In this document: positions 4,592 through 64,000 of the stretch, one piece after another
Layout of the letters: each line of letters opens with the position of its first letter
How positions within the stretch are numbered: position 1 is the first letter of the stretch
Source of the DNA: a virus
Virus record (IMG/VR): IMGVR_UViG_3300037149_000105
Coordinates: 32,001-96,000 of that record
Strand: one strand, 5' to 3'
DNA: 64,000 bases
The notes under the pieces: generated by a model
Told to the model about the DNA's origin: nothing
The model's input: the letters and a program-made list of their open reading frames with translations, nothing else
Database searches by the model: none
Position numbers and translations under genes: made by a program

Positions 4592-7500
4592 GGGCTATAG
4601 GGTCGAGCGTGAGCGGGAGCGGGTGCAGTTTCTCCTGCATGTCCAGGAAGTGGGTTACCTTGATTTGTGTTTGCAGCTATTTCAACGCTGTTATTGGTTG
4701 TAGTAATATGATAGGTGTTGCCAGGAAGCACTTTGTTCAATTCACTTTGCACCATTGAGAGATTTCCATGTTTAGCAAGAGTCGGATCTGTGGCTGCTTC
4801 AGTCAGCCAATCCTGATGTTTATCTCTAGCGGACGCCAAAACTGCGTCCATTTTAGTCCCACCTTCAGCATAGGAAGCAAGCTCATAAGCAGTTTTATGC
4901 GGCCCATGTGTGTAGTTTGACTGCCCCTCTATTTCATCTAAATAGGCACTCGCAAGTTGCCTTTGGTAGGCAATTGATTCTGCGGGGGAGTGTCCAACTC
5001 CTAAAAATAAATTTTTATCAAATGAGTGCCCACCCACCTGATACTGATTACCCAGCTTTTCAGCAACATTAGGCATCATTTGATACGCCCCATAAGCTTG
5101 TGATGCTGGTCTATCCTTTGTAACAACATTCTTTTTATTATAGGCTTGATCATCCGTTAATCCTCTTGTCTCACCCTGGCGTATAGTGTCCAACATATCT
5201 TTTCGAAATGGTGGGGCATCAGTGTCATTTGAATCATAGGACGTAGTAGTTTCCCCAGAAAATATTTTTTGATCTTTTTTAATAGAGTCAGCTTGAGTAG
5301 CCTTGGCATATCCCATTTTTAGTCTTAAATCTTCAAGAGTCGTATTAGATGGTACTATTGCCAAGGCATGAATGTCCTGTGCAAGAGTATTGTGAATTTC
5401 CCCCTGAAGAGCATTACCTTCTTGCGTACCAGTGAATCTGCTTTTGGCCACTGTTTGTGCCTCTTCAACTGTGTCAGCTACCTCTGTTAAATTTTTCTTC
5501 TCTTCTGGAGTTCTAGCATTGGATGCTGCATCCCTAATTTTATCTATGGGGCCTTGTTCTGCGGATGGCCCGAAAGCTGCATATTTGTCCGCTCTATCCT
5601 TTTGTTCCTGTAGGGTTTGTTTATCAGTTTTGAACAAAGTAAGATTAAAGAAGTTAACACATTCTTCAAGCAAGGTAACTATGTGTTCTACTAATGCCTT
5701 TAAAGCCTTTTTAATGTAATCCAATGGTCCGGTTATATAACTTTGATTCTCTTCTGCGGTTTTTTTAGCAGCTTTCACATCGGCATCAGAAATAACATCC
5801 GATAATCTCTGAGAAAATAAGTTATTAATTGTATCTTGAACTGGTTTCATTTCTGTAATATCTTTACCAGTATCCAAATTTTTATTAATATCTTTCCATC
5901 CCTTTGAATTTATATTTGAAAACTGTGCTCTAGCTGCCTTTCCTTCTTCAGTATCAGGATTCATTCGTGCAGCCTCTGTAATGCCTGCCAAAATTTGATG
6001 ACCCGCTTGCCCCAAATGTGTAGTAAGATCTTCTGGATGAAGATTGAGATTCTTTCCAACTTCTAAGAATTCCCCAGTCTTTGACAAGGATTGAACTCTG
6101 TTTCTAGCTGAATCAGAAGCTTGAATAAAATCTGAAAGCTTAGCATTTCCATGCATAGCTACTTTTAGTAGGGAAAGTTGTTTAGCTATTTTGCTTTCAG
6201 GAGTTTCACCGGTCAGAGCCTCTTGAGTGGCCAAACCAATTGGTGAGTGATCCTTTATTGCAAGTTTACCTTGATTTCGTTGCTTAAGAAACATTTCCAT
6301 TGCTGCGGTTTCTTCAGGATGACCAGGAGTTACCTTATTTCTTAATGCCTCATCCGTAGCCTTCTCCATTTCTTCTGCCGTGGTGTTTTTTATTGTACCA
6401 TCAGCAAGTAACTTAGCCCCTGTTGCTCTATACTTAGCCTGCTTACTCTCTGCAAACCCTAGACGCCCCTTATCACCCATCTGGATATAAGCAAAAATAC
6501 TCTGTTCGTACGTCTTTTTATCCCCTTCAAGACCCTTGACCATTTTTGAGATATCATCTGTAGTATAAGTAGCATTTTTACCTAAAAGCAGCATTAGTCC
6601 GCAGGTAAAGTTTAGAGATTTATTTAATTTATCAAACTCACTCGTAACATCATCAAGTAGTTTTAAATAAGATACAACGCTAATCCCAGTAGACTGAACA
6701 GCTTTCCCAATATGGACAAACATATCTTCCACTTCACCCATGGAAAGGCTAAATTCATGCAGTAATTTCATAGTTAGTTGGGTAGATTCAGTGGTGTCTA
6801 ACCCAATATTTTTTCCAAACATCGCGCCATTTCGAACTACACCACTATATATATTTGAGGCTCTAGAGGCACCAATGGCGTCATCCGGAGTCATCCCGTC
6901 ATTGACCTTGCCATACTTAGTTTGCACAGCTTGCCCGGACTCAACTACAGTTTTCATCATATCTGACATTTTTTCAAAATCAAGGTCATAGTATCGAGCT
7001 GCCCCCTTCCCCTGGCCACCCATGCCGTAACCTCCTGGTTCTAAAGCCCTACTCCATTCGTTATAATTTGCTCCCATTTTGCCCCCACCCTGAACAATTC
7101 CACCTTTGCCAAGTTTTGAGTATATATCCTTATTTCTATCAAATCCTTGCTGAAAAAGTTGTAAAATACCATAAAGGGCGGCGGCTGGACCAGCAATGGC
7201 TCCCATGGCTCCACCTAACATTGAACCACCCCCTTCTGACATCAGCCCCATTCCCATTTTTCCGAGCATTCCTCCACCACCGGAAGCGGTGGATTTTAGA
7301 GCCCTACCCATAAGGGCACGATCCAACATCCCTGCTACACCAGTTTTTCCTGAAAGTTGGCGAACCACAGCGGATCTGTCCCCCTCACTCATCCCCTTGG
7401 CACTATATACACCCTGAAGTTTGGCAAATCCTGCTGCTCGTTTATCTGCATTAAAGCTAAGTAAGTCAGCATGTCCTTTTTTTACAGCAGTATTCTCCCC

Positions 7501-8208
7501 CGAACGTTTCTTATCAAATAAATCCTGTTTCATTCGTTCCTTGCCAGAACTTATAGTTTCAGCTTTAAGCCGCTTGACCTGAGCCTGCATATTAGCAAGA
7601 TTTCCAAACAACCCCTTGAACCCAAAGTTGTCCAAAACCTTGAAGGCTCTGATTGCCCCACCAATAGAGTCATCGAAAGCCTTACCTACCCCCTTTGCTT
7701 CAGCCACCTGTTTGCTAAATGAAATATCCTCTATAACCCCTTTGGCCTCCTCTACACTTTCAGTTACTCCTTCAATTGCCTTAGTAAAATCATCAGCATT
7801 TTTAATATTTGCTTTCATTGCCTTACCAATAGCCTCTTGAACTTTTTCAATTTTCTTCAATTCTACTTCATCTTTTTCATGAAATTTCTTTGCTTTTTCA
7901 TATTCTTTGTTCAATTTTCCTAAATAACTCACAACTTTTTCTCGTTCTTTTGCATCTGAAACATCTATTCGATGTAATTTAGTTGTGAGAGTCAAAATTT
8001 CTTTGTAATTATTAATTCCCTCCTCTGTTGAAAAAATTATATCATGCAAACTATCGCTCCACCGTTTGAGGGACTTATTACCCTCTTCAATAGGTTTCCC
8101 CATCCCCGCTAATGCTGTTGTCAGGGAACCAACAGTAGTGGTGAGTGAACCCATCAAGGTCTGCATACCTTGAAGAGTTTTAAGGGTTTCTTTTTGACTT
8201 GATGCCAT
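4576..8208 (-). CDS. Tape measure protein with C-terminal lysozyme/transglycosylase-like domain
   Basis: 1210 aa, Ala/Gly/Lys-rich, helical; C-terminal IRQGETRG...AYGAYQMMP...LASY lysozyme-like motifs. Confidence 0.75.
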   Translation of the reverse strand: MASSQKETLKTLQGMQTLMGSLTTTVGSLTTALAGMGKPIEEGNKSLKRWSDSLHDIIFSTEEGINNYKEILTLTTKLHRIDVSDAKEREKVVSYLGKLNKEYEKAKKFHEKDEVELKKIEKVQEAIGKAMKANIKNADDFTKAIEGVTESVEEAKGVIEDISFSKQVAEAKGVGKAFDDSIGGAIRAFKVLDNFGFKGLFGNLANMQAQVKRLKAETISSGKERMKQDLFDKKRSGENTAVKKGHADLLSFNADKRAAGFAKLQGVYSAKGMSEGDRSAVVRQLSGKTGVAGMLDRALMGRALKSTASGGGGMLGKMGMGLMSEGGGSMLGGAMGAIAGPAAALYGILQLFQQGFDRNKDIYSKLGKGGIVQGGGKMGANYNEWSRALEPGGYGMGGQGKGAARYYDLDFEKMSDMMKTVVESGQAVQTKYGKVNDGMTPDDAIGASRASNIYSGVVRNGAMFGKNIGLDTTESTQLTMKLLHEFSLSMGEVEDMFVHIGKAVQSTGISVVSYLKLLDDVTSEFDKLNKSLNFTCGLMLLLGKNATYTTDDISKMVKGLEGDKKTYEQSIFAYIQMGDKGRLGFAESKQAKYRATGAKLLADGTIKNTTAEEMEKATDEALRNKVTPGHPEETAAMEMFLKQRNQGKLAIKDHSPIGLATQEALTGETPESKIAKQLSLLKVAMHGNAKLSDFIQASDSARNRVQSLSKTGEFLEVGKNLNLHPEDLTTHLGQAGHQILAGITEAARMNPDTEEGKAARAQFSNINSKGWKDINKNLDTGKDITEMKPVQDTINNLFSQRLSDVISDADVKAAKKTAEENQSYITGPLDYIKKALKALVEHIVTLLEECVNFFNLTLFKTDKQTLQEQKDRADKYAAFGPSAEQGPIDKIRDAASNARTPEEKKNLTEVADTVEEAQTVAKSRFTGTQEGNALQGEIHNTLAQDIHALAIVPSNTTLEDLRLKMGYAKATQADSIKKDQKIFSGETTTSYDSNDTDAPPFRKDMLDTIRQGETRGLTDDQAYNKKNVVTKDRPASQAYGAYQMMPNVAEKLGNQYQVGGHSFDKNLFLGVGHSPAESIAYQRQLASAYLDEIEGQSNYTHGPHKTAYELASYAEGGTKMDAVLASARDKHQDWLTEAATDPTLAKHGNLSMVQSELNKVLPGNTYHITTTNNSVEIAANTNQGNPLPGHAGETAPAPAHARPYSPWTNQ

Positions 8209-8819
8209 TAAATGTCCTCATTAGGATTTACAATTTCCTTGATTGCATCCTTGTAAACGGTCTGCTGGGCTTCCTCAATTTCTTTCAGTGCCTGACCAAT
8301 AAATCTTTTTTCTACCTCGGTCATAACCTGATTGTCAGGGAGGGACTCAAACAGGCGATCTTCAATCTTCTGGCAGTGGACCATAAGGATTTTCCACAAA
8401 ACATTGACTACCTCTTGCCCCCATCCCATGATAAGGTTGCGAATCACCACCCTAAGAGTTGACTCCTTATGAGTTGTGGGATCCAGGATAAACTCATCTT
8501 TTCTATCCTTTAAATCTATCCCATTGACCCAACTGATCGCACGAGAGAGAATTTCTGCCTTGATTCTTGAGACCCAGGCATGACCCTTATACTCCTCAAC
8601 TGCTAAGAGGGTTTCAATTTCTTCCTCTGTAGGAATGTTAGCGAGTCTGAGCTGTATTTGTTTGCCACCAGCCCCAAAGCTGATGAGTTCTGAAGTTTCC
8701 TCAATTCCAAATCCTTTCAAATCCGCAATGATTGTCTCAAGAGAGGGTTGAGGAAGAGACTGAATTTCAACCGGGGCCTTTTTAGCCTCACTGGTATGGT
8801 TAGTATATTTCCGAGTCAT
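8208..8819 (-). CDS. Probable tail assembly chaperone
   Basis: 203 aa acidic protein directly upstream of tape measure. Confidence 0.45.
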   Translation of the reverse strand: MTRKYTNHTSEAKKAPVEIQSLPQPSLETIIADLKGFGIEETSELISFGAGGKQIQLRLANIPTEEEIETLLAVEEYKGHAWVSRIKAEILSRAISWVNGIDLKDRKDEFILDPTTHKESTLRVVIRNLIMGWGQEVVNVLWKILMVHCQKIEDRLFESLPDNQVMTEVEKRFIGQALKEIEEAQQTVYKDAIKEIVNPNEDI

Positions 8820-21098: not shown

Positions 21099-21125
21099 GC
21101 GTCCCTCCTCCTAAGAAAGAGATGC

Positions 21126-21162
21126 GGGGGCCGGTAAATATCTGGTCCCCATTTTTCTTTTT
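21126..21162 (+). terminator. Intrinsic terminator after rIIB
   Basis: GGGGGCCGG...CTGGTCCCC hairpin plus U-tract. Confidence 0.7.
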
Positions 21163-21243
21163 GTCTCCCCCATGGGTGAGTGGATTGAAACTGTTATGGT
21201 TAGACAAGTCTCAGAAGCATCACCCTTCTGAGTGGATTGAAAC
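21163..21243 (+). CRISPR. Two type I-C repeat-like units (21163-21191, 21208-21243) 16 nt apart; not a canonical array
   Basis: GTCTCCCCCATGGGTGAGTGGATTGAAAC and GTCTCAGAAGCATCACCCTTCTGAGTGGATTGAAAC. Confidence 0.7.
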
Positions 21244-21259
21244 TAAGAAAGAGGCTGCT

Positions 21260-21451
21260 TTGCTCATACCACTTCCTCACCACAGTTTAAATCGTGAAAC
21301 TTCCGAACGTCTCCTTAAGCTCAGGGCATTGCTGCTCAAGATCCTTCAGGAGGCCCCCGATTCAGTTAGAGAAGAGGTATCCGAAAAGGCCCTCGCCATT
21401 TATTCCGCAATTCAGCAAGAAATTTTCAAGGAGCAATCAAATGGAACGTAA
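21260..21451 (+). CDS. Small helical hypothetical protein (63 aa)
   Basis: TTG start after AAAGAGG inside ORF 21122-21451; overlaps ligase start. Confidence 0.5.
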   Translation: MLIPLPHHSLNRETSERLLKLRALLLKILQEAPDSVREEVSEKALAIYSAIQQEIFKEQSNGT

Positions 21452-22538: not shown

Positions 22539-22567
22539 GTCTCTCCCACGGGAGAGTGGATTGAAAC
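22539..22567 (+). CRISPR. Solitary type I-C repeat-like unit
   Basis: GT-CTCTCC-CACG-GGAGAG-TGGATTGAAAC, 17 nt upstream of the HNH ATG. Confidence 0.7.
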
Positions 22568-23635: not shown

Positions 23636-24698
23636 CATCCTCCCCTCCCTAAACGGAGGGGATTCCTAGCCGTAGAGTCTGATGTCCCAGACCGAGACGG
23701 AGTATATTTTGAGCAGCGTTTACATCTCTATTATGAGACGCTCCGCATTCAGAGCATACCCAATCTCTTACCGACAGCCCACTTAGTCCTTTCGGGCCGG
23801 TGAGGGCGGCACAGCCGCCACACCGCTGGGTTGTCCAAGCTTCATTAACGATTCGGACTACCTTGCCAAGCTTAATAGCTTTATAAGACAAGAAGTTCAG
23901 AACCATACTGATACCCGCATCCAAGGTAGATTTGCAAGCTTTCAAATGTAAATCCCCAACTATGATTAAATCATAGGAATTAATCAGATTTGTGGTCAAT
24001 TTGTGCAAATAATCTTTGCGTTGATTTTTGATTCGGGCGTGAATAGATTTTGTTTGATTCTTATGTTTAGCTCTCTGAGCGGTTGCAAGCCTAGCTTGCG
24101 ATTTGTAATAAAACTTTTCATTAGAATAACTGATCGAATCAGAGCTAGTCGCTATGGATTTCAAACCTAAATCAACTCCTACTTGAGTTTTAAACTCTAC
24201 CAGTTGGGAGACTTTCCCAATCTCAACTTGCAAGTTTATGAACCAATTCCCCTTGGAATCCTGATTAAAACTACCAGTCCTGATATCAGCTTCGCTGAGA
24301 TTAATGGCGTTATAATGAGAATCGAAGAATTTAAACTTATGTTTACAATAGATGAACAAGTTATTTTTAAATCTCAAGGCGGAAGCTTTGAATGGTATCC
24401 ACCCGAGAACGCATTTATAGCTCCGCCAGCGAAGCTTTTGTTTCTTGAATTGTTTGCGCCTAGTAATATATTCTTTACATATGGATTGGACGGTTGTAGA
24501 GTTCAAACCCAATTCGCCCGCACAGCCAGCCGTCTGGTTGTCAAGTTCATACTCGCTGGCCCATTTCGAATACTTCTTGAGTTGGTTATAACTCTGTTCA
24601 TTACAATAGTTCCATACCAGATTGACCGCAGAACTCATCCGAATCAAGATTTTTCTTGAAACGGAGTCCTTGAGTCTGTAATGGAGAGTAATAATCAT
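23632..24698 (-). mobile_element. IS200/IS605-family tnpB-only element (IS1341-like)
   Basis: Right end ...CCCCTCCGTTTAGGGAGGGGAGGATGTCAA on minus strand; no tnpA; left end not identified. Confidence 0.75.
23649..24698 (-). CDS. tnpB: TnpB RNA-guided nuclease
   Basis: VNLVWN, VGVDLG, IIVGDL, VNEAWTTQRC..C, WVCSECG..NRDVNAAQNIL. Confidence 0.93.
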   Translation of the reverse strand: MIITLHYRLKDSVSRKILIRMSSAVNLVWNYCNEQSYNQLKKYSKWASEYELDNQTAGCAGELGLNSTTVQSICKEYITRRKQFKKQKLRWRSYKCVLGWIPFKASALRFKNNLFIYCKHKFKFFDSHYNAINLSEADIRTGSFNQDSKGNWFINLQVEIGKVSQLVEFKTQVGVDLGLKSIATSSDSISYSNEKFYYKSQARLATAQRAKHKNQTKSIHARIKNQRKDYLHKLTTNLINSYDLIIVGDLHLKACKSTLDAGISMVLNFLSYKAIKLGKVVRIVNEAWTTQRCGGCAALTGPKGLSGLSVRDWVCSECGASHNRDVNAAQNILRLGLGHQTLRLGIPSV

Positions 24699-59704: not shown

Positions 59705-60028
59705 ATGGCCAAGAAAATCACTCTCGCAACGCTTAAGTCCTTTGTCAGAAAGAACCTCCCCGTTATGTTCATCTGCAAAAGAGCTAGTTTTGACGGGATG
59801 ACGGACTGTGTGGAATACGACAGCAACGCGACTTTTCAACCGGCAAAAGAGGGCGCATCCTATCCTGAAAACACCTTAGGGATTGCGGGCGTCTGGCTGG
59901 TTGGAAGTTCACGTGACCGTATTAGTCGCTATGAAGCCCCAGGCTGGGAAGGATTCGAAGTCTATAATTGCTGTGGGACGTTTGTGGTGGCGGTGAAGGT
60001 AGCCATCCCCATGGAACCGAAACTGTAA
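59705..60028 (+). CDS. Hypothetical early protein
   Basis: 107 aa, same leader as the previous gene. Confidence 0.75.
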   Translation: MAKKITLATLKSFVRKNLPVMFICKRASFDGMTDCVEYDSNATFQPAKEGASYPENTLGIAGVWLVGSSRDRISRYEAPGWEGFEVYNCCGTFVVAVKVAIPMEPKL

Positions 60029-60067
60029 TTCCCGCCCCTCTGAAGAGGGGCATTCTTTGGAGCCATC

Positions 60068-60460
60068 ATGTCCATAGCTAGCCAGTATCTCGCGTTCGAA
60101 CTTTCAGGGGCTAGTCGTGTCTTTTTGTGGACGCAGTTCAAGCCGCACTTCAAGAAAGTGATGTGCCAGCACATTACCGTCCAGTTCAATCTGACCGAGG
60201 AGTCGGCTGTGCTGCTCCAGGAGCAACTGGCTAACGCTAACCTTCAGGTCGTAGGGTTCCAGATCGGAGACGGGGTGGAGTGTCTGGTGGTGGAGGTGAA
60301 CGGTTCGTCTCGTCGTCCCGATGGGGGCTGCTACCACATCACCCTCAGTCTGGCCGATGGGCATAAGCCGGTCGAGTCCAACCAGCTTATCAAACAGCAG
60401 GGGTTCCAGACTTGTGTCCCAGTCGGAATCGAGGCGGAGCTAAAACTCCTCAACAAATGA
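60068..60460 (+). CDS. 2H phosphoesterase
   Basis: HITV and HITL motifs. Confidence 0.75.
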   Translation: MSIASQYLAFELSGASRVFLWTQFKPHFKKVMCQHITVQFNLTEESAVLLQEQLANANLQVVGFQIGDGVECLVVEVNGSSRRPDGGCYHITLSLADGHKPVESNQLIKQQGFQTCVPVGIEAELKLLNK

Positions 60461-60487
60461 GGCCATCACACAGTAATATGTATTATA

Positions 60488-60811
60488 ATGCCCAATCACT
60501 ACGCCACTTCATGGATGCCCCGAGAGGACTTGGTTATCTCCCTATCCGATGAGACTGCGGCGGAGCGGACTCAAGAGGAACGAGACCAAATGTTCCTAGA
60601 GCTTCGTGAGGTGGTGAAACAGCATGGCTTTGACCTCAACGCCTGGGGCTCTGATGCTTCGTTTAGAAAATATTATCAGGCACCATTGAAGAAAGAATGT
60701 GAAGGTTTCTTTGACGTATGGGACTCATACTGGCTGGCCAATACGTTGGGTGGCCCAACCTTCGACCAATTGAGCGAGGCAGCGGAGCGGATTCGCAAAT
60801 TCATCATTTGA
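60488..60811 (+). CDS. Hypothetical protein
   Basis: 107 aa. Confidence 0.6.
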   Translation: MPNHYATSWMPREDLVISLSDETAAERTQEERDQMFLELREVVKQHGFDLNAWGSDASFRKYYQAPLKKECEGFFDVWDSYWLANTLGGPTFDQLSEAAERIRKFII

Positions 60812-60848
60812 CATCTTCCCTGAAATTTGATATGCTGTAAGGGAGGAT

Positions 60849-61259
60849 GTGATGATAAAACTCACTGGCAAGCTTCATTACGACCACACTCCCGAGTACG
60901 GATATCGGCTCGTGCTGGAAATCTGCCCCGGTATTCCCATGTTCTACCGGTGGCTCATCCCCAAGTGGTATCAAGTGAATGGACTGAGGGCCAAGGCTCA
61001 CATCACCGTGATCCGGAGGGAGAAGCCTGCTAACCTTAAGGCATGGGGTAAGTATGAAGGGGAGGTTGTGGAGTATGAGTATGATCCTGAGTCTCTTCAG
61101 ACTGATGGCAAGCTGTACTGGTGGTTAAACTGTTTCAGCCACCGGCTCGAAGCGGTTGCTGAGGAGTTGGGTATGCCCTTTGTCAACTACATCAAACCCG
61201 CCGAAGGTTACCGGAAGGTTTGGCACACCACTGTAGCAAACATGAAACAAACGAATTAA
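60849..61259 (+). CDS. 2H phosphoesterase
   Basis: AHITVI and WHTTV motifs; TTGACA-N17-TATGCT promoter. Confidence 0.75.
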   Translation: MMIKLTGKLHYDHTPEYGYRLVLEICPGIPMFYRWLIPKWYQVNGLRAKAHITVIRREKPANLKAWGKYEGEVVEYEYDPESLQTDGKLYWWLNCFSHRLEAVAEELGMPFVNYIKPAEGYRKVWHTTVANMKQTN

Positions 61260-61313
61260 TTTCTATATACAAATCTGACCGAAAGTGGGTATACTAGTCT
61301 AAAGGAGTCACAT

Positions 61314-61442
61314 ATGAACCGTCTCGTTCGTCTCGCCCTTCGCGCACAGCGGAATCTTCGCAATCCCCTGGTCTGGTATGTGGCCGGGATGGTTGACCTG
61401 ACCCTCATCCTGCTGGTCTGCAACCACTTCAAGTGGATCTGA
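61314..61442 (+). CDS. Small membrane peptide (42 aa)
   Basis: Own promoter 61266-61295, AAGGAG RBS, terminator hairpin near 61460-61484. Confidence 0.6.
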   Translation: MNRLVRLALRAQRNLRNPLVWYVAGMVDLTLILLVCNHFKWI

Positions 61443-61513
61443 TACACAGAAAAGAAATGAAACGCCTCCGAACGGGGGCGTTTCAAGTATTAGCTAGTAA
61501 AGGAGTAGTTCAA

Positions 61514-62239
61514 ATGAAAGAAGGATACACTCACATCTCTGCCATTATCGACCGTTCAGGTTCGATGTTCGGCATCAAAACCGATACCGAGGGCGGGTAT
61601 AACACCTTCCTGAAGGATCAGAAAGAACTGCCAGGGGAGGCTACGATCAGCCTCACTACATTTGACGACCGGATTGAACTCGAATACGGAATGATCGCCA
61701 TCAAGGATGCCCCCGCCTTCACCCTCCAGCCCCATGGTATGACTGCCATGCTGGATGCCATTGGTGTGACCATCAAGAACCTGGGAGCCAAGCTGGCAGC
61801 CATGGATGAAGCCGACCGTCCCGAGAAGGTTCTGGTTGTGATTCTCACTGATGGCGAGGAGAACAGCAGCAAGGAATACACCTATCAGACCATCAAGGCC
61901 ATGATCACCGAACAAACCGAAGTTTACTCCTGGGAGTTCCTGTTCCTAGGAGCCAACCAGGATGCGGTTCTGGCCGGGAGTCAGATTGGCATCTCCGCTG
62001 GCAAGAGCATGAGCTATGCGGCCAACGGAGCCAGTGTGGGCAACACTTTCACAACCATATCCAAATCCAGTTCTGCTTATCGGATGTCGGCCCGAGGGGT
62101 CGCTGCCCCTGATTTCACCAATCAGGATCGCGCTGATTCCATGATTCTGGATCCGAGTGCAGCAACCAGTGTTTCGGCTGGGGTTCCTAACGTTCAGACG
62201 TTCAACCCACCTCCGGTTCCCCCAGCAGATCCTAAGTAA
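61514..62239 (+). CDS. vWA domain protein
   Basis: DRSGSM MIDAS, TAMLDAIG, ILTDGEENSS, FLGAN. Confidence 0.9.
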   Translation: MKEGYTHISAIIDRSGSMFGIKTDTEGGYNTFLKDQKELPGEATISLTTFDDRIELEYGMIAIKDAPAFTLQPHGMTAMLDAIGVTIKNLGAKLAAMDEADRPEKVLVVILTDGEENSSKEYTYQTIKAMITEQTEVYSWEFLFLGANQDAVLAGSQIGISAGKSMSYAANGASVGNTFTTISKSSSAYRMSARGVAAPDFTNQDRADSMILDPSAATSVSAGVPNVQTFNPPPVPPADPK

Positions 62240-62306
62240 GCTCAGCGACTAGCCGCTTCTAATGTGTGAACCTACAAAATAGGCTAATGACACGGGAGGA
62301 GCCATA

Positions 62307-62780
62307 ATGTCCATCTTAACCGAGTGGGTCTCTACCCTAGAAGCCACCACTTATCCCTGGACTGATCAGTATTTACATACGCCTAATGGGTTCGACCCAT
62401 TAGGCGTTTTGTGTGAAATGTATCGTCTCACGTTCTCCGCTCAGCCGATTCAGGATCAACCAACTTGGGTTTTGGGCCCTACTGGCACCTTTTACATCTT
62501 CACCGATCCTGGGGCTACTGACGGCATCAGCAACAAGCTCCCTGAGTCGGTTCAGCGATGGGCTGATTTGTTGGAAGCGGATCCAATCATGGTTCTGACC
62601 GATAGCAATGTAGACATTGGCTATCCGGTCTACATCCCTCTGAATGAAGTGGTGGATGGATTGGTTCTGAAGGTGGATACCACCATCCCCCCGGTTTTCG
62701 GGGTGCAGCAGCGGCCTTATTCAAATACTGAAATTATAGCTCTTATCGCTGCATTCGTCGCTTCCTACAATCCTGATTAA
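62307..62780 (+). CDS. Hypothetical protein
   Basis: 157 aa, GGAGGAG RBS. Confidence 0.7.
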   Translation: MSILTEWVSTLEATTYPWTDQYLHTPNGFDPLGVLCEMYRLTFSAQPIQDQPTWVLGPTGTFYIFTDPGATDGISNKLPESVQRWADLLEADPIMVLTDSNVDIGYPVYIPLNEVVDGLVLKVDTTIPPVFGVQQRPYSNTEIIALIAAFVASYNPD

Positions 62781-62834
62781 ACTTTTTTGAAAAAAGACTA
62801 ACCAAAAATCAAAACTCGCGGTATTATCTCTAGG

Positions 62835-62884
62835 TAGACGCTAACAGCAATCTCATCCCCTGTAACGGAACGAAACTGCGTCTA
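62835..62884 (+). ncRNA. AGAC-N5-CAGCAA family RNA, copy 4 (leader of the TROVE-like gene)
   Basis: TAGACGC/GCGTCTA stem, CTGTAAC loop, followed by U-tract. Confidence 0.6.
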
Positions 62885-62892
62885 GTGTTTTT

Positions 62893-62924
62893 GTCTCATG
62901 GCCGTGCCATGAGTGGATTGAAAC
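62893..62924 (+). CRISPR. Solitary 32-nt type I-C repeat-like unit
   Basis: GT-CTCATGGC-CGT-GCCATGAG-TGGATTGAAAC. Confidence 0.75.
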
Positions 62925-62939
62925 AAATAGGAGATCGTC

Positions 62940-64000
62940 GTGTCCAACCTGCTTAACGCCATCACCCGCACTCAGAACTACACCCGTACCGAGAATGGTG
63001 CGCTGACGCATCAGTCCACGCTGGACGGTGTGCTTGACTTCTATTACCACGCTCCCGCTCGTCGGGGTCAGGACAACACTGCCCTCTTCTTGAAGGCATT
63101 TGGCGAGGACCGTCTGACGGCCATCCGCTGCCTTTTCTACATCCGTGACATCCGTGGGGGTCAGGGGGAGCGTGAGACCTTCCGTCAGGGTCTGCGCGAA
63201 CTGTACAAGAACTTCCGTGAGGTGTTCGACCACATCCTCTCCTATGTGCCGGTCTACGGTCGTTGGGACGACATCGTGGAGTACGTCTCCGATCAGAAGG
63301 TCGTGTCGGTCATCCATGAGCAGCTAAACCTGGATCTCGGATCCGAAGAGGGTGTGAGCCTCCTGGCGAAGTGGATGCCCTCCATCAACACCTCTTCCAA
63401 GGAGACGGTCGCCCTGGCGCACCGATGGGTGAAGGCTCTGGGTTGGACTCCCGTCCAGTACCGCAAGAATCTCTCTACCCTCCGTGGCCGCATCAAGCTG
63501 GTCGAGACCGCCATGTCCCAGAACCAGTGGGACTCCATCTCTTACGGCCAGATTCCATCCCGTGCGGGTCTGCTCTACAAGGATGCGTTCAAGCGTCATG
63601 ATGGTGCTCGTTACGACGAGTTCCTGGCGGCGGTTGTGCGGGGTGAGGAGAAAATCAACTCCGGCACCCTCTACCCCTACGAACTGGTGGCCAAGTCCAT
63701 CGGCCAGAAGGACCAGACCGCCGAGGCGATGTGGAAGTGCCTGCCGAACTATGCGGATACCGACGACAACGCTCTGGTTGTCGCAGATGTTTCGGGCTCG
63801 ATGTGTGGGGCTCGTGGGCCAAGCAACATCGCCCCGATCACCGTGTGCATCAGCCTCGCCATCTATCTGGCTGAGCGGAACAAGGGGATCTTCCACAACA
63901 AGTTCATCACCTTCAGTGAGACCCCGGCTGTCCAGTCTCTCAAGGGGGACACCCTCTACGAGAAGGTCAGCAACCTCTCCAGGGCAACCTGGGGCATGAA
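62940..64000 (+). CDS. DUF2828 / TROVE(Ro60)-like protein with vWA domain (partial)
   Basis: Missing from ORF track (runs off window end). GTG after AGGAG; TENGA...ST, RDIRGGQGER, YGRWDD, LLAKWMP, LYPYE, VVADVSGSM. Confidence 0.85.
   Translation, partial: MSNLLNAITRTQNYTRTENGALTHQSTLDGVLDFYYHAPARRGQDNTALFLKAFGEDRLTAIRCLFYIRDIRGGQGERETFRQGLRELYKNFREVFDHILSYVPVYGRWDDIVEYVSDQKVVSVIHEQLNLDLGSEEGVSLLAKWMPSINTSSKETVALAHRWVKALGWTPVQYRKNLSTLRGRIKLVETAMSQNQWDSISYGQIPSRAGLLYKDAFKRHDGARYDEFLAAVVRGEEKINSGTLYPYELVAKSIGQKDQTAEAMWKCLPNYADTDDNALVVADVSGSMCGARGPSNIAPITVCISLAIYLAERNKGIFHNKFITFSETPAVQSLKGDTLYEKVSNLSRATWGM

Follow-up and report, generated by a model that had tools for sequence, protein, structure and literature searches.

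What is a CRISPR repeat doing in front of a gene for a protein that resembles Ro60? The question is raised by a stretch of viral DNA of 64,000 nucleotides (the window), which comprises bases 32001-96000 of the 147-kb virus record IMGVR_UViG_3300037149_000105 of the IMG/VR database. Close to the end of the window, a gap of 159 nt (62781-62939, the leader) separates a 157-aa open reading frame (ORF) ending at 62780 from the GTG start at 62940 of a gene of the DUF2828/DUF7788 type. A preliminary description of this DNA had noticed in the leader a promoter-like box, a small RNA containing the letters CAGCAA (CAGCAA RNA), a U-tract, a type I-C CRISPR repeat and a ribosome-binding site, and had read the whole row as one device, in which the gene product attenuates its own transcription and cleavage of the repeat separates the small RNA from the mRNA. 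Reading of the sequence finds every one of these motifs in its described place. Nevertheless, with moderate confidence we propose another answer: the leader would be a locus of two RNA cassettes co-transcribed with the DUF2828 gene, one for a partner RNA of the encoded protein and one for a decoy resembling the RNA anti-CRISPRs (Racrs), and not an attenuator. The parts of the leader and the gene behind it are as follows.

62822-62827, plus strand: -10-like hexamer TATTAT, within GGTATTAT (62820-62827), 7 nt before the helix of the CAGCAA RNA
62835-62885, plus strand: CAGCAA RNA, copy 4 (covariance model R1, 49.2 bits, E 1.6e-9)
62885-62892, plus strand: U-rich tail GTGTTTTT after the CAGCAA RNA, T-rich but different in sister lineages
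62893-62924, plus strand: solitary type I-C repeat mimic, unit 4, 32 nt (hairpin -11.8 kcal/mol, z -3.0)
62929-62933, plus strand: Shine-Dalgarno sequence AGGAG, 6 nt before the start codon
62940-64000, plus strand: 5' part of the 478-aa DUF2828/DUF7788 gene, which continues beyond the end of the window (full gene at L004:1530-2966, its 478 codons at 1530-2963; L numbers denote the loci and contigs compared)

The first cassette belongs to a family of small RNAs. Copy 4 consists of a clamp helix of 7 bp (62835-62841 with 62878-62884), the single-stranded CAGCAA (62845-62850), a variable interior and a trailing G. From one to five such RNAs lie upstream of DUF2828 genes, on the strand of the gene, in relatives whose proteins are 34-91% identical. 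They share a 5' register, (U/A)AG(A/G)CNC followed after about three letters by CAGCAA, and a 3' end, GNG(U/C)CU(A/U)G. In an alignment of 13 short members the clamp helix is 97.8% paired, four of its seven pairs change on both sides and one pair shows all four Watson-Crick types; over 23 distinct sequences pairing reaches up to 98.8% and the number of pairs changing on both sides rises to six. When the partner is slid by 1-3 columns as a control, pairing is only 14-53%.

The covariance model R1, built from the alignment of 13 short members, gave 33 matches in viral DUF2828 loci, all of them on the strand of the gene and all but one at most about 660 nt upstream of it; 9 of the 11 distinct viral loci carry a CAGCAA RNA in this orientation. 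Metagenome loci found independently yielded 54 further matches, again all on the gene's strand (23 of 52 loci), and 16 loci lacking a DUF2828 gene yielded none. That this RNA is tied to the gene family is borne out by these same-strand matches, viral and metagenomic alike: the link is real and conserved. Rfam contains no match for the CAGCAA RNA, the Y RNA and YrlA models included, either at gathering score in the whole window or at E 10 in 62700-63000. The family is widespread and is absent from Rfam and from the papers searched.

What kind of protein do these RNAs accompany? The 478-aa product matches Pfam families DUF2828 (PF11443) and DUF7788 (PF25043), as well as PHROG 850, 'RNA-binding protein' (E 7e-144). 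Its AlphaFold model, built on an alignment of 11 sequences, has a mean predicted local distance difference test score (pLDDT) of 81.9. In a Foldseek comparison of this model with the PDB, Ro60 of Thermus phage phiLo is the best match (E 6.5e-8, template modelling (TM) score 0.54-0.56, about 495 columns, whole length), followed by Deinococcus Rsr and then by Xenopus and human Ro60. Ranks 1-13 are occupied by Ro60 of phage, bacterial and animal origin (probability 1.00 for each among the 12 rows listed), and after them come isolated von Willebrand factor A (vWA) domains only. The model thus predicts a Ro60-like ring fold, composed of a HEAT-repeat toroid and a vWA domain. A sequence-profile search of PDB sequences did not find Ro60; the fold search alone did. 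The name 'TROVE-like', under which the gene was first described, is apt as far as the predicted fold goes and has to be given up as a statement of family membership. Another protein of 268 aa, encoded at 61433-62239 two genes upstream of the DUF2828 gene, has vWA-like DxSGS and TDGEEN motifs; it matches PHROG 7371 (unknown function) and no Pfam family.

Because the CAGCAA RNA is associated with DUF2828 genes and the protein is predicted to form a Ro60 ring, the RNA is most likely a Y-RNA-like partner of the protein; the association and the predicted fold were computed here, and binding is what we infer from them. Comparable arrangements have been described. In Thermus phage phiLo, two Y-like RNAs (Yrl1 and Yrl2) from upstream of the Ro60 gene bind Ro60 (PMC12135203), and in Mycobacterium smegmatis YrlA and YrlB, located upstream of rsr, come from one precursor (PMC4201824). 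Common to these systems and ours are a ring-shaped protein of HEAT repeats and a vWA domain (predicted here), from one to five small RNAs, encoded on the strand of the gene immediately in front of it and with ends joined by a conserved helix, interiors of which some resemble parts of tRNAs, and probable processing from a shared precursor. On the other side, the protein here is a DUF2828/DUF7788 protein without a TROVE match, the RNA fits none of the Rfam models for Y RNA or YrlA, and its conserved letters, CAGCAA beside the helix, are unlike those of the Ro-binding helix. By architecture only, the CAGCAA RNAs can also be likened to the Class I RNAs of dictyostelids, which measure about 60 nt; in them a short stem brings the two ends together, a single-stranded motif beside the 5' arm is conserved and the rest of the molecule varies (Kjellin et al. 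2021, PMC7919456); those RNAs are eukaryotic and have no known Ro-like partner.

Are the small RNA and the gene transcribed together? In most other loci only 3-37 nt separate the end of the last CAGCAA RNA from the Shine-Dalgarno sequence, too short a distance to accommodate another promoter; in the window, 44 nt lie between copy 4 and the ribosome-binding site. Further, contigs assembled from peat and permafrost RNA libraries bridge the leader. Contigs of three runs begin at 62845 and cover 62845-63147 (one contig in X4, two adjoining pieces in X1 and X2), and a fourth run supplies a contig covering 62900-63168. Those starting at 62845 extend without a break into the gene, across U-run, repeat and ribosome-binding site. 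Considering the bridging contigs together with the short spacing in other loci, the CAGCAA RNA and the DUF2828 gene probably form one transcription unit. No contig of these libraries ends at the U-run or at the cut predicted for the CRISPR nuclease Cas5c, and none covers 62821-62844. Uncut read-through molecules probably exist; contigs drop rare forms, so cutting may still occur. The contig ends shared between runs, 62845 (the C of CAGCAA) and 63147, may represent either a real 5' end or a fragment common to the libraries of one sampling campaign.

A promoter within the leader, as first described, is partly upheld. The TATTAT box is there, is identical in the related loci L025 and L159, and is possibly the promoter of the small RNA. 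The accompanying -35 element is poor, however, and a consensus scan called no sigma-70 promoter in 62600-63050.

The three remaining CAGCAA RNAs of the window lie 10-18 kb from the DUF2828 gene, in its tRNA island; the phage has 16 tRNA genes and a tmRNA gene.

44599-44689, plus strand: CAGCAA RNA, copy 1, in the tRNA island
49951-50040, plus strand: CAGCAA RNA, copy 2, in the tRNA island (R1, E 0.1)
52423-52519, plus strand: CAGCAA RNA, copy 3, in the tRNA island (R1, E 0.3)

In other phages CAGCAA RNAs follow directly after tRNA 3' ends (L026:2440-2550 and L034:2290-2770), which suggests that such copies are released by tRNA-processing enzymes. At 45393-45468 of the window ARAGORN reports a tRNA with a four-letter anticodon (aaaa), and Rfam scores this stretch as a tRNA as well.

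The second cassette, unit 4, is a genuine mimic of a type I-C repeat, as far as its sequence can tell. It is laid out as 2 nt, a stem of 8 bp, a loop of 3 nt and an 11-nt handle, UGGAUUGAAAC, and shuffled sequences are expected to give 0 matches of this kind. The finding that two motif families meet at one gene is sound, CAGCAA RNA and CRISPR repeat both being real features and not products of chance. Real type I-C repeats are composed of a 2-nt overhang, a stem-loop and an 11-nt overhang; Cas5c recognises the base of the stem and the UGG immediately following the cut, is indifferent to the loop and to the 5' overhang, and holds the 5' handle (PMC8524198). The predicted cut in unit 4 falls between 62913 and 62914. 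Three more units of the form GTCTC-hairpin-GAGTGGATTGAAAC occur in the window.

21163-21243, plus strand: type I-C repeat mimics 1 (21163-21191) and 2 (21208-21243), 16 nt apart, directly after a terminator
22539-22567, plus strand: type I-C repeat mimic 3; the ATG of an HNH gene follows after 17 nt

All four units are on the plus strand, and the 147-kb record has no further ones. Each has a different hairpin and the stems are compensated. What Cas5c reads (stem base, UGG, 11-nt handle) is kept in four of four units; only the parts that it ignores vary. The position of the 21163 repeat immediately behind a terminator U-tract, pointed out at the outset, agrees with the sequence. The 16 nt between units 1 and 2, TGTTATGGT, resemble an extended -10 box. 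A TnpB-type ORF (OrfB_IS605 and a Cas12f1-like TNB domain) is found at 23649-24698 on the minus strand, just downstream of the ligase/HNH block that contains units 1-3.

The assignment to type I-C follows from the locus L114, where an array of repeats with the same ends adjoins cas3, cas5d, csd1, cas7, cas4 and cas1 in the same orientation. The CRISPR-DR models of Rfam gave sub-threshold matches only for the region of unit 4. Among the matches listed, array repeats sharing these ends come from many phyla, and for this reason we rejected the general repeat pattern as a pointer to the host. Mimicry of an array leader was rejected as well: real arrays often have TTGCT before the first repeat, whereas the phage units are preceded by T-runs. 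A search for Cas5d in the 147-kb record, which is rated about 51% complete, gave no match.

We consider unit 4 most likely to be a decoy of the Racr type, a function suggested by its sequence and by its likeness to known cases. RacrIC1, a tested solitary repeat of type I-C, is co-transcribed with acrIC5 and inhibits type I-C interference (Camara-Wilpert et al. 2023, PMC10651486). Like Racrs, unit 4 is a lone repeat of a defined subtype in an intergenic region of a phage, with no cas genes nearby and with hairpin and handle kept, and, like RacrIC1 with acrIC5, it probably shares a transcript with the gene next to it. Two things set it apart: this phage has four units with four hairpins and no recognised acr gene nearby, and unit 4 immediately follows a structured small RNA within the leader of a Ro60-like gene. 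Viral crRNA-like regulatory RNAs, termed Cracr (Liu et al., bioRxiv 10.1101/2024.10.29.618823), are also derived from repeats (crRNA, CRISPR RNA); they load host Cas proteins and sometimes form small arrays. In their layout, a repeat is followed by a short spacer that matches a cas or toxin promoter and then by a second, degenerate repeat. Unit 4 differs from them in having neither a second repeat after 62924 nor a dedicated spacer, since what follows is the conserved ribosome-binding site and coding start, shared by relatives that lack the unit.

How did the two cassettes come to stand side by side? The same leader is present only in near-identical DNA, namely L012/L022 (L012 with 99.8% DNA identity) and L158. 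In L023/L025 and L159, whose proteins are 91% identical to ours, the first CAGCAA RNA and the -10 box in front of it have been kept, as has AGGAGATCG beyond the exchanged cassette, and a second CAGCAA RNA of 115 nt fills the slot in which the window has the repeat. The GTG start at 62940 is common to homologues. In more distant relatives the CAGCAA RNAs number two to five and a repeat is absent, and none of the other DUF2828 loci examined (about 70) has a repeat in this slot. With extra CAGCAA RNAs and no repeat in sisters and distant relatives alike, the comparison is explained most simply by a recent replacement of the second CAGCAA RNA by the repeat in this lineage. Among viral contigs, 51 stretches were picked up as further junctions of a CAGCAA RNA 3' end with a type I-C repeat, and only that in this phage's relative is genuine; the junction pattern missed short units such as the one in L017.

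Conservation of the arrangement in related phages, which the preliminary description had named as one of the points on which its reading would fall, is thus not found. The stack is, on comparison of these sequences, a lineage-specific juxtaposition of two RNA cassettes and not a conserved regulatory switch. Two further candidates were tried and rejected. One integrated structure of the leader is not indicated, since the fold of the whole leader is no better than that of shuffled sequence (z 0.03). Nor did the U-tract arrive together with the repeat cassette, because L159 has a similar T-rich tail without a repeat.

Similar units were encountered at other sites. In L017, which belongs to the same contig as L025, a repeat mimic follows the homologue of CAGCAA RNA copy 1 at a distance of 37 nt; in the alignment of L017:1340-1470 with 44650-44840 of the window, the repeat stands where the window has 131 unrelated nt, a second swap beside a CAGCAA RNA. 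On an unrelated viral contig of 50 kb (L005:6070-6184), a mimic of the same class follows a tRNA-Met gene after 7 nt on the same strand. Units of this class in the unrelated phages L010, L015 and L016 are found directly behind a -10 box and before a terminator. The orthologue of unit 3 in L013 has a different yet paired stem at about 81% DNA identity and is situated 15 nt before a start codon. Elsewhere in L013, comparison of 6480-6600 with 21110-21290 of the window (about 83% DNA identity) reveals the promoter-like TGGGTATAAT after the same terminator, in place of units 1-2, and an additional stretch of about 930 bases at 7796-8729 separates the RNA ligase gene from the repeat unit preceding the HNH gene. 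L011:9740-9900 (minus strand) has two type I-C repeats, each followed by a similar stretch of about 35 nt beginning with ATAATTGGGATT and ATAATTAGTGGG, respectively; by sequence the pair looks like a small array of crRNA-like RNAs. On two viral contigs of 129 and 279 kb (L009 and L021), a 36-nt repeat mimic is directly followed by five copies of AAAC. Such repeats behave like small-RNA cassettes that move about and become established in well-expressed RNA units.

The proposed two-cassette locus could work in the following way. Cassette 1 (62835-62885) would supply a Y-RNA-like partner for the Ro60-like DUF2828 protein. Cassette 2 (62893-62924) would supply a type I-C decoy RNA, which is expressed by riding on the unit of stable RNA and mRNA. 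In a host with a type I-C system, Cas5c would cut between 62913 and 62914 as a by-product; the cut would free the upstream RNA and leave Cas5c on the handle-tagged mRNA.

Several observations weigh against this proposal. DNA carry-over is possible in the RNA libraries from which the contigs were assembled. At E 0.1 the record has no match to the TROVE model PF05731. For three of the four units, the distance from their end to a start codon or to the next unit is 15-17 nt, a spacing that a pure decoy would not require. An exact-repeat scan of genome contigs found none with the hairpin of unit 4, and 1060 spacers from the fetched arrays have no match in the 147-kb record, the best agreement (22 of 35 letters) being at chance level.

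Which other explanations have to be weighed? An autoregulation that does without CRISPR is a possibility we regard as unlikely. Here the leader RNA would be an operator through which the Ro-like protein lowers translation or stability of its own mRNA, and the repeat would be a passenger. With the last RNA only 3-37 nt from the Shine-Dalgarno sequence, the mRNA does carry the protein's probable binding site. However, the distance to the ribosome-binding site is variable, the 44 nt of the window lying outside the range seen elsewhere, and the copies in the tRNA island are too far off to act other than in trans. The contigs starting at 62845, inside the RNA, add weak evidence that the transcript may lack the 5' arm of the clamp. 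We know of no precedent for autoregulation by Ro60.

Attenuation with maturation, the original reading, now seems improbable. It supposes that the Ro-like protein binds the leader RNA and thereby causes termination at the U-tract, and that cleavage by host Cas5c is the maturation step separating RNA from mRNA. The order of the parts is as this model describes, the probable co-transcription of RNA and gene calls for some processing step, and Cas5c, if present, would cut at the site in unit 4. Nevertheless, an attenuator would have a G+C-rich, short-loop hairpin directly before the U-run, and none exists in 62600-63050; a consensus scan of the same region found no intrinsic terminator. The sole helix before the U-run is the 7-bp clamp, which closes an interior of 36 nt and is separated from the U-run by three non-U letters. 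As an alternative fold, the 5' arm is predicted to pair with the U-rich tail in two of three close lineages, the window and L159, and not in L025; by these predictions it is not a conserved switch. With contigs reading through the U-tract in addition, attenuation there is not supported. The claim that the repeat is a maturation signal fares no better: the 91%-identity relatives and all other DUF2828 loci examined lack a repeat in this slot, and contigs cross the repeat uncut. Those relatives, with a second CAGCAA RNA in the slot at 91% identity, separate RNA from mRNA without a CRISPR site. Further, a phage cannot depend on a host enzyme that is missing from many hosts.

The repeat might also be an inert remnant of recombination with a CRISPR array, as its patchy, lineage-specific distribution among close relatives would allow. 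This we find very improbable, since all four copies are in the transcribed orientation, the determinants read by Cas5c are intact with stems compensated, and the orthologous unit in L013 has been kept, re-paired, at about 81% DNA identity.

Least credible of all is a switch sensing host CRISPR proteins. In this model Cas5c would remain on the 11-nt handle after cutting the repeat, the following 15 nt, ribosome-binding site included, would be loaded with Cas7, and expression of the Ro-like, HNH and ligase genes would be tuned by the type I-C status of the host. Repeat ends in the window do lie 15 and 17 nt ahead of start codons, a distance of 15 nt is also seen in L013, and Cas5c does hold the 5' handle in type I-C, but the L017 repeat lies between RNA genes with no start codon nearby, units in other phages stand alone between promoter and terminator, and the model is without experimental precedent.

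The phage itself must be large, since the 147-kb record is rated only about 51% complete; megablast of 60000-64000 against GenBank phage records gave no match.

One more idea should be mentioned for what it would imply. Host Cas5c might serve as a conditional input into phage RNA processing, so that in a type I-C host the cut at 62913/62914 releases the Y-like RNA. The mRNA would then begin with a 5'-OH and a crRNA handle, with the ribosome-binding site 4 nt beyond the handle, and Cas5c and Cas7, by loading on it, would at once tie up Cascade subunits and tune synthesis of the Ro-like protein. We give this idea only a very slight chance. In synthetic operons, engineered Csy4/Cas6f sites act as insulators in the 5' untranslated region, where cleavage uncouples the mRNA from upstream RNA. 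Unit 4 resembles them in being a CRISPR repeat just before a ribosome-binding site; the insulators are artificial designs with the nuclease supplied, whereas unit 4 is known from sequence. If the idea were true, the leader would be the first natural use by a phage of a host CRISPR nuclease for processing its own transcript and a natural counterpart of those insulators, and it would link a Ro-like particle to anti-CRISPR action.

Taken together, the leader joins two kinds of phage small RNA whose recognition is only beginning, the probable handle-bearing partner RNA of a Ro60-like protein and the putative CRISPR-repeat decoy. It also calls for caution, because a tidy row of motifs need not be one regulatory device. 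Comparison with sister phages shows such putative decoys to be exchangeable cassettes, which enter slots in operons for stable RNAs, where they follow a tRNA or a CAGCAA RNA or stand in for a CAGCAA RNA. Such slots suggest where high expression of decoys may come from and in which places more of them may be found.

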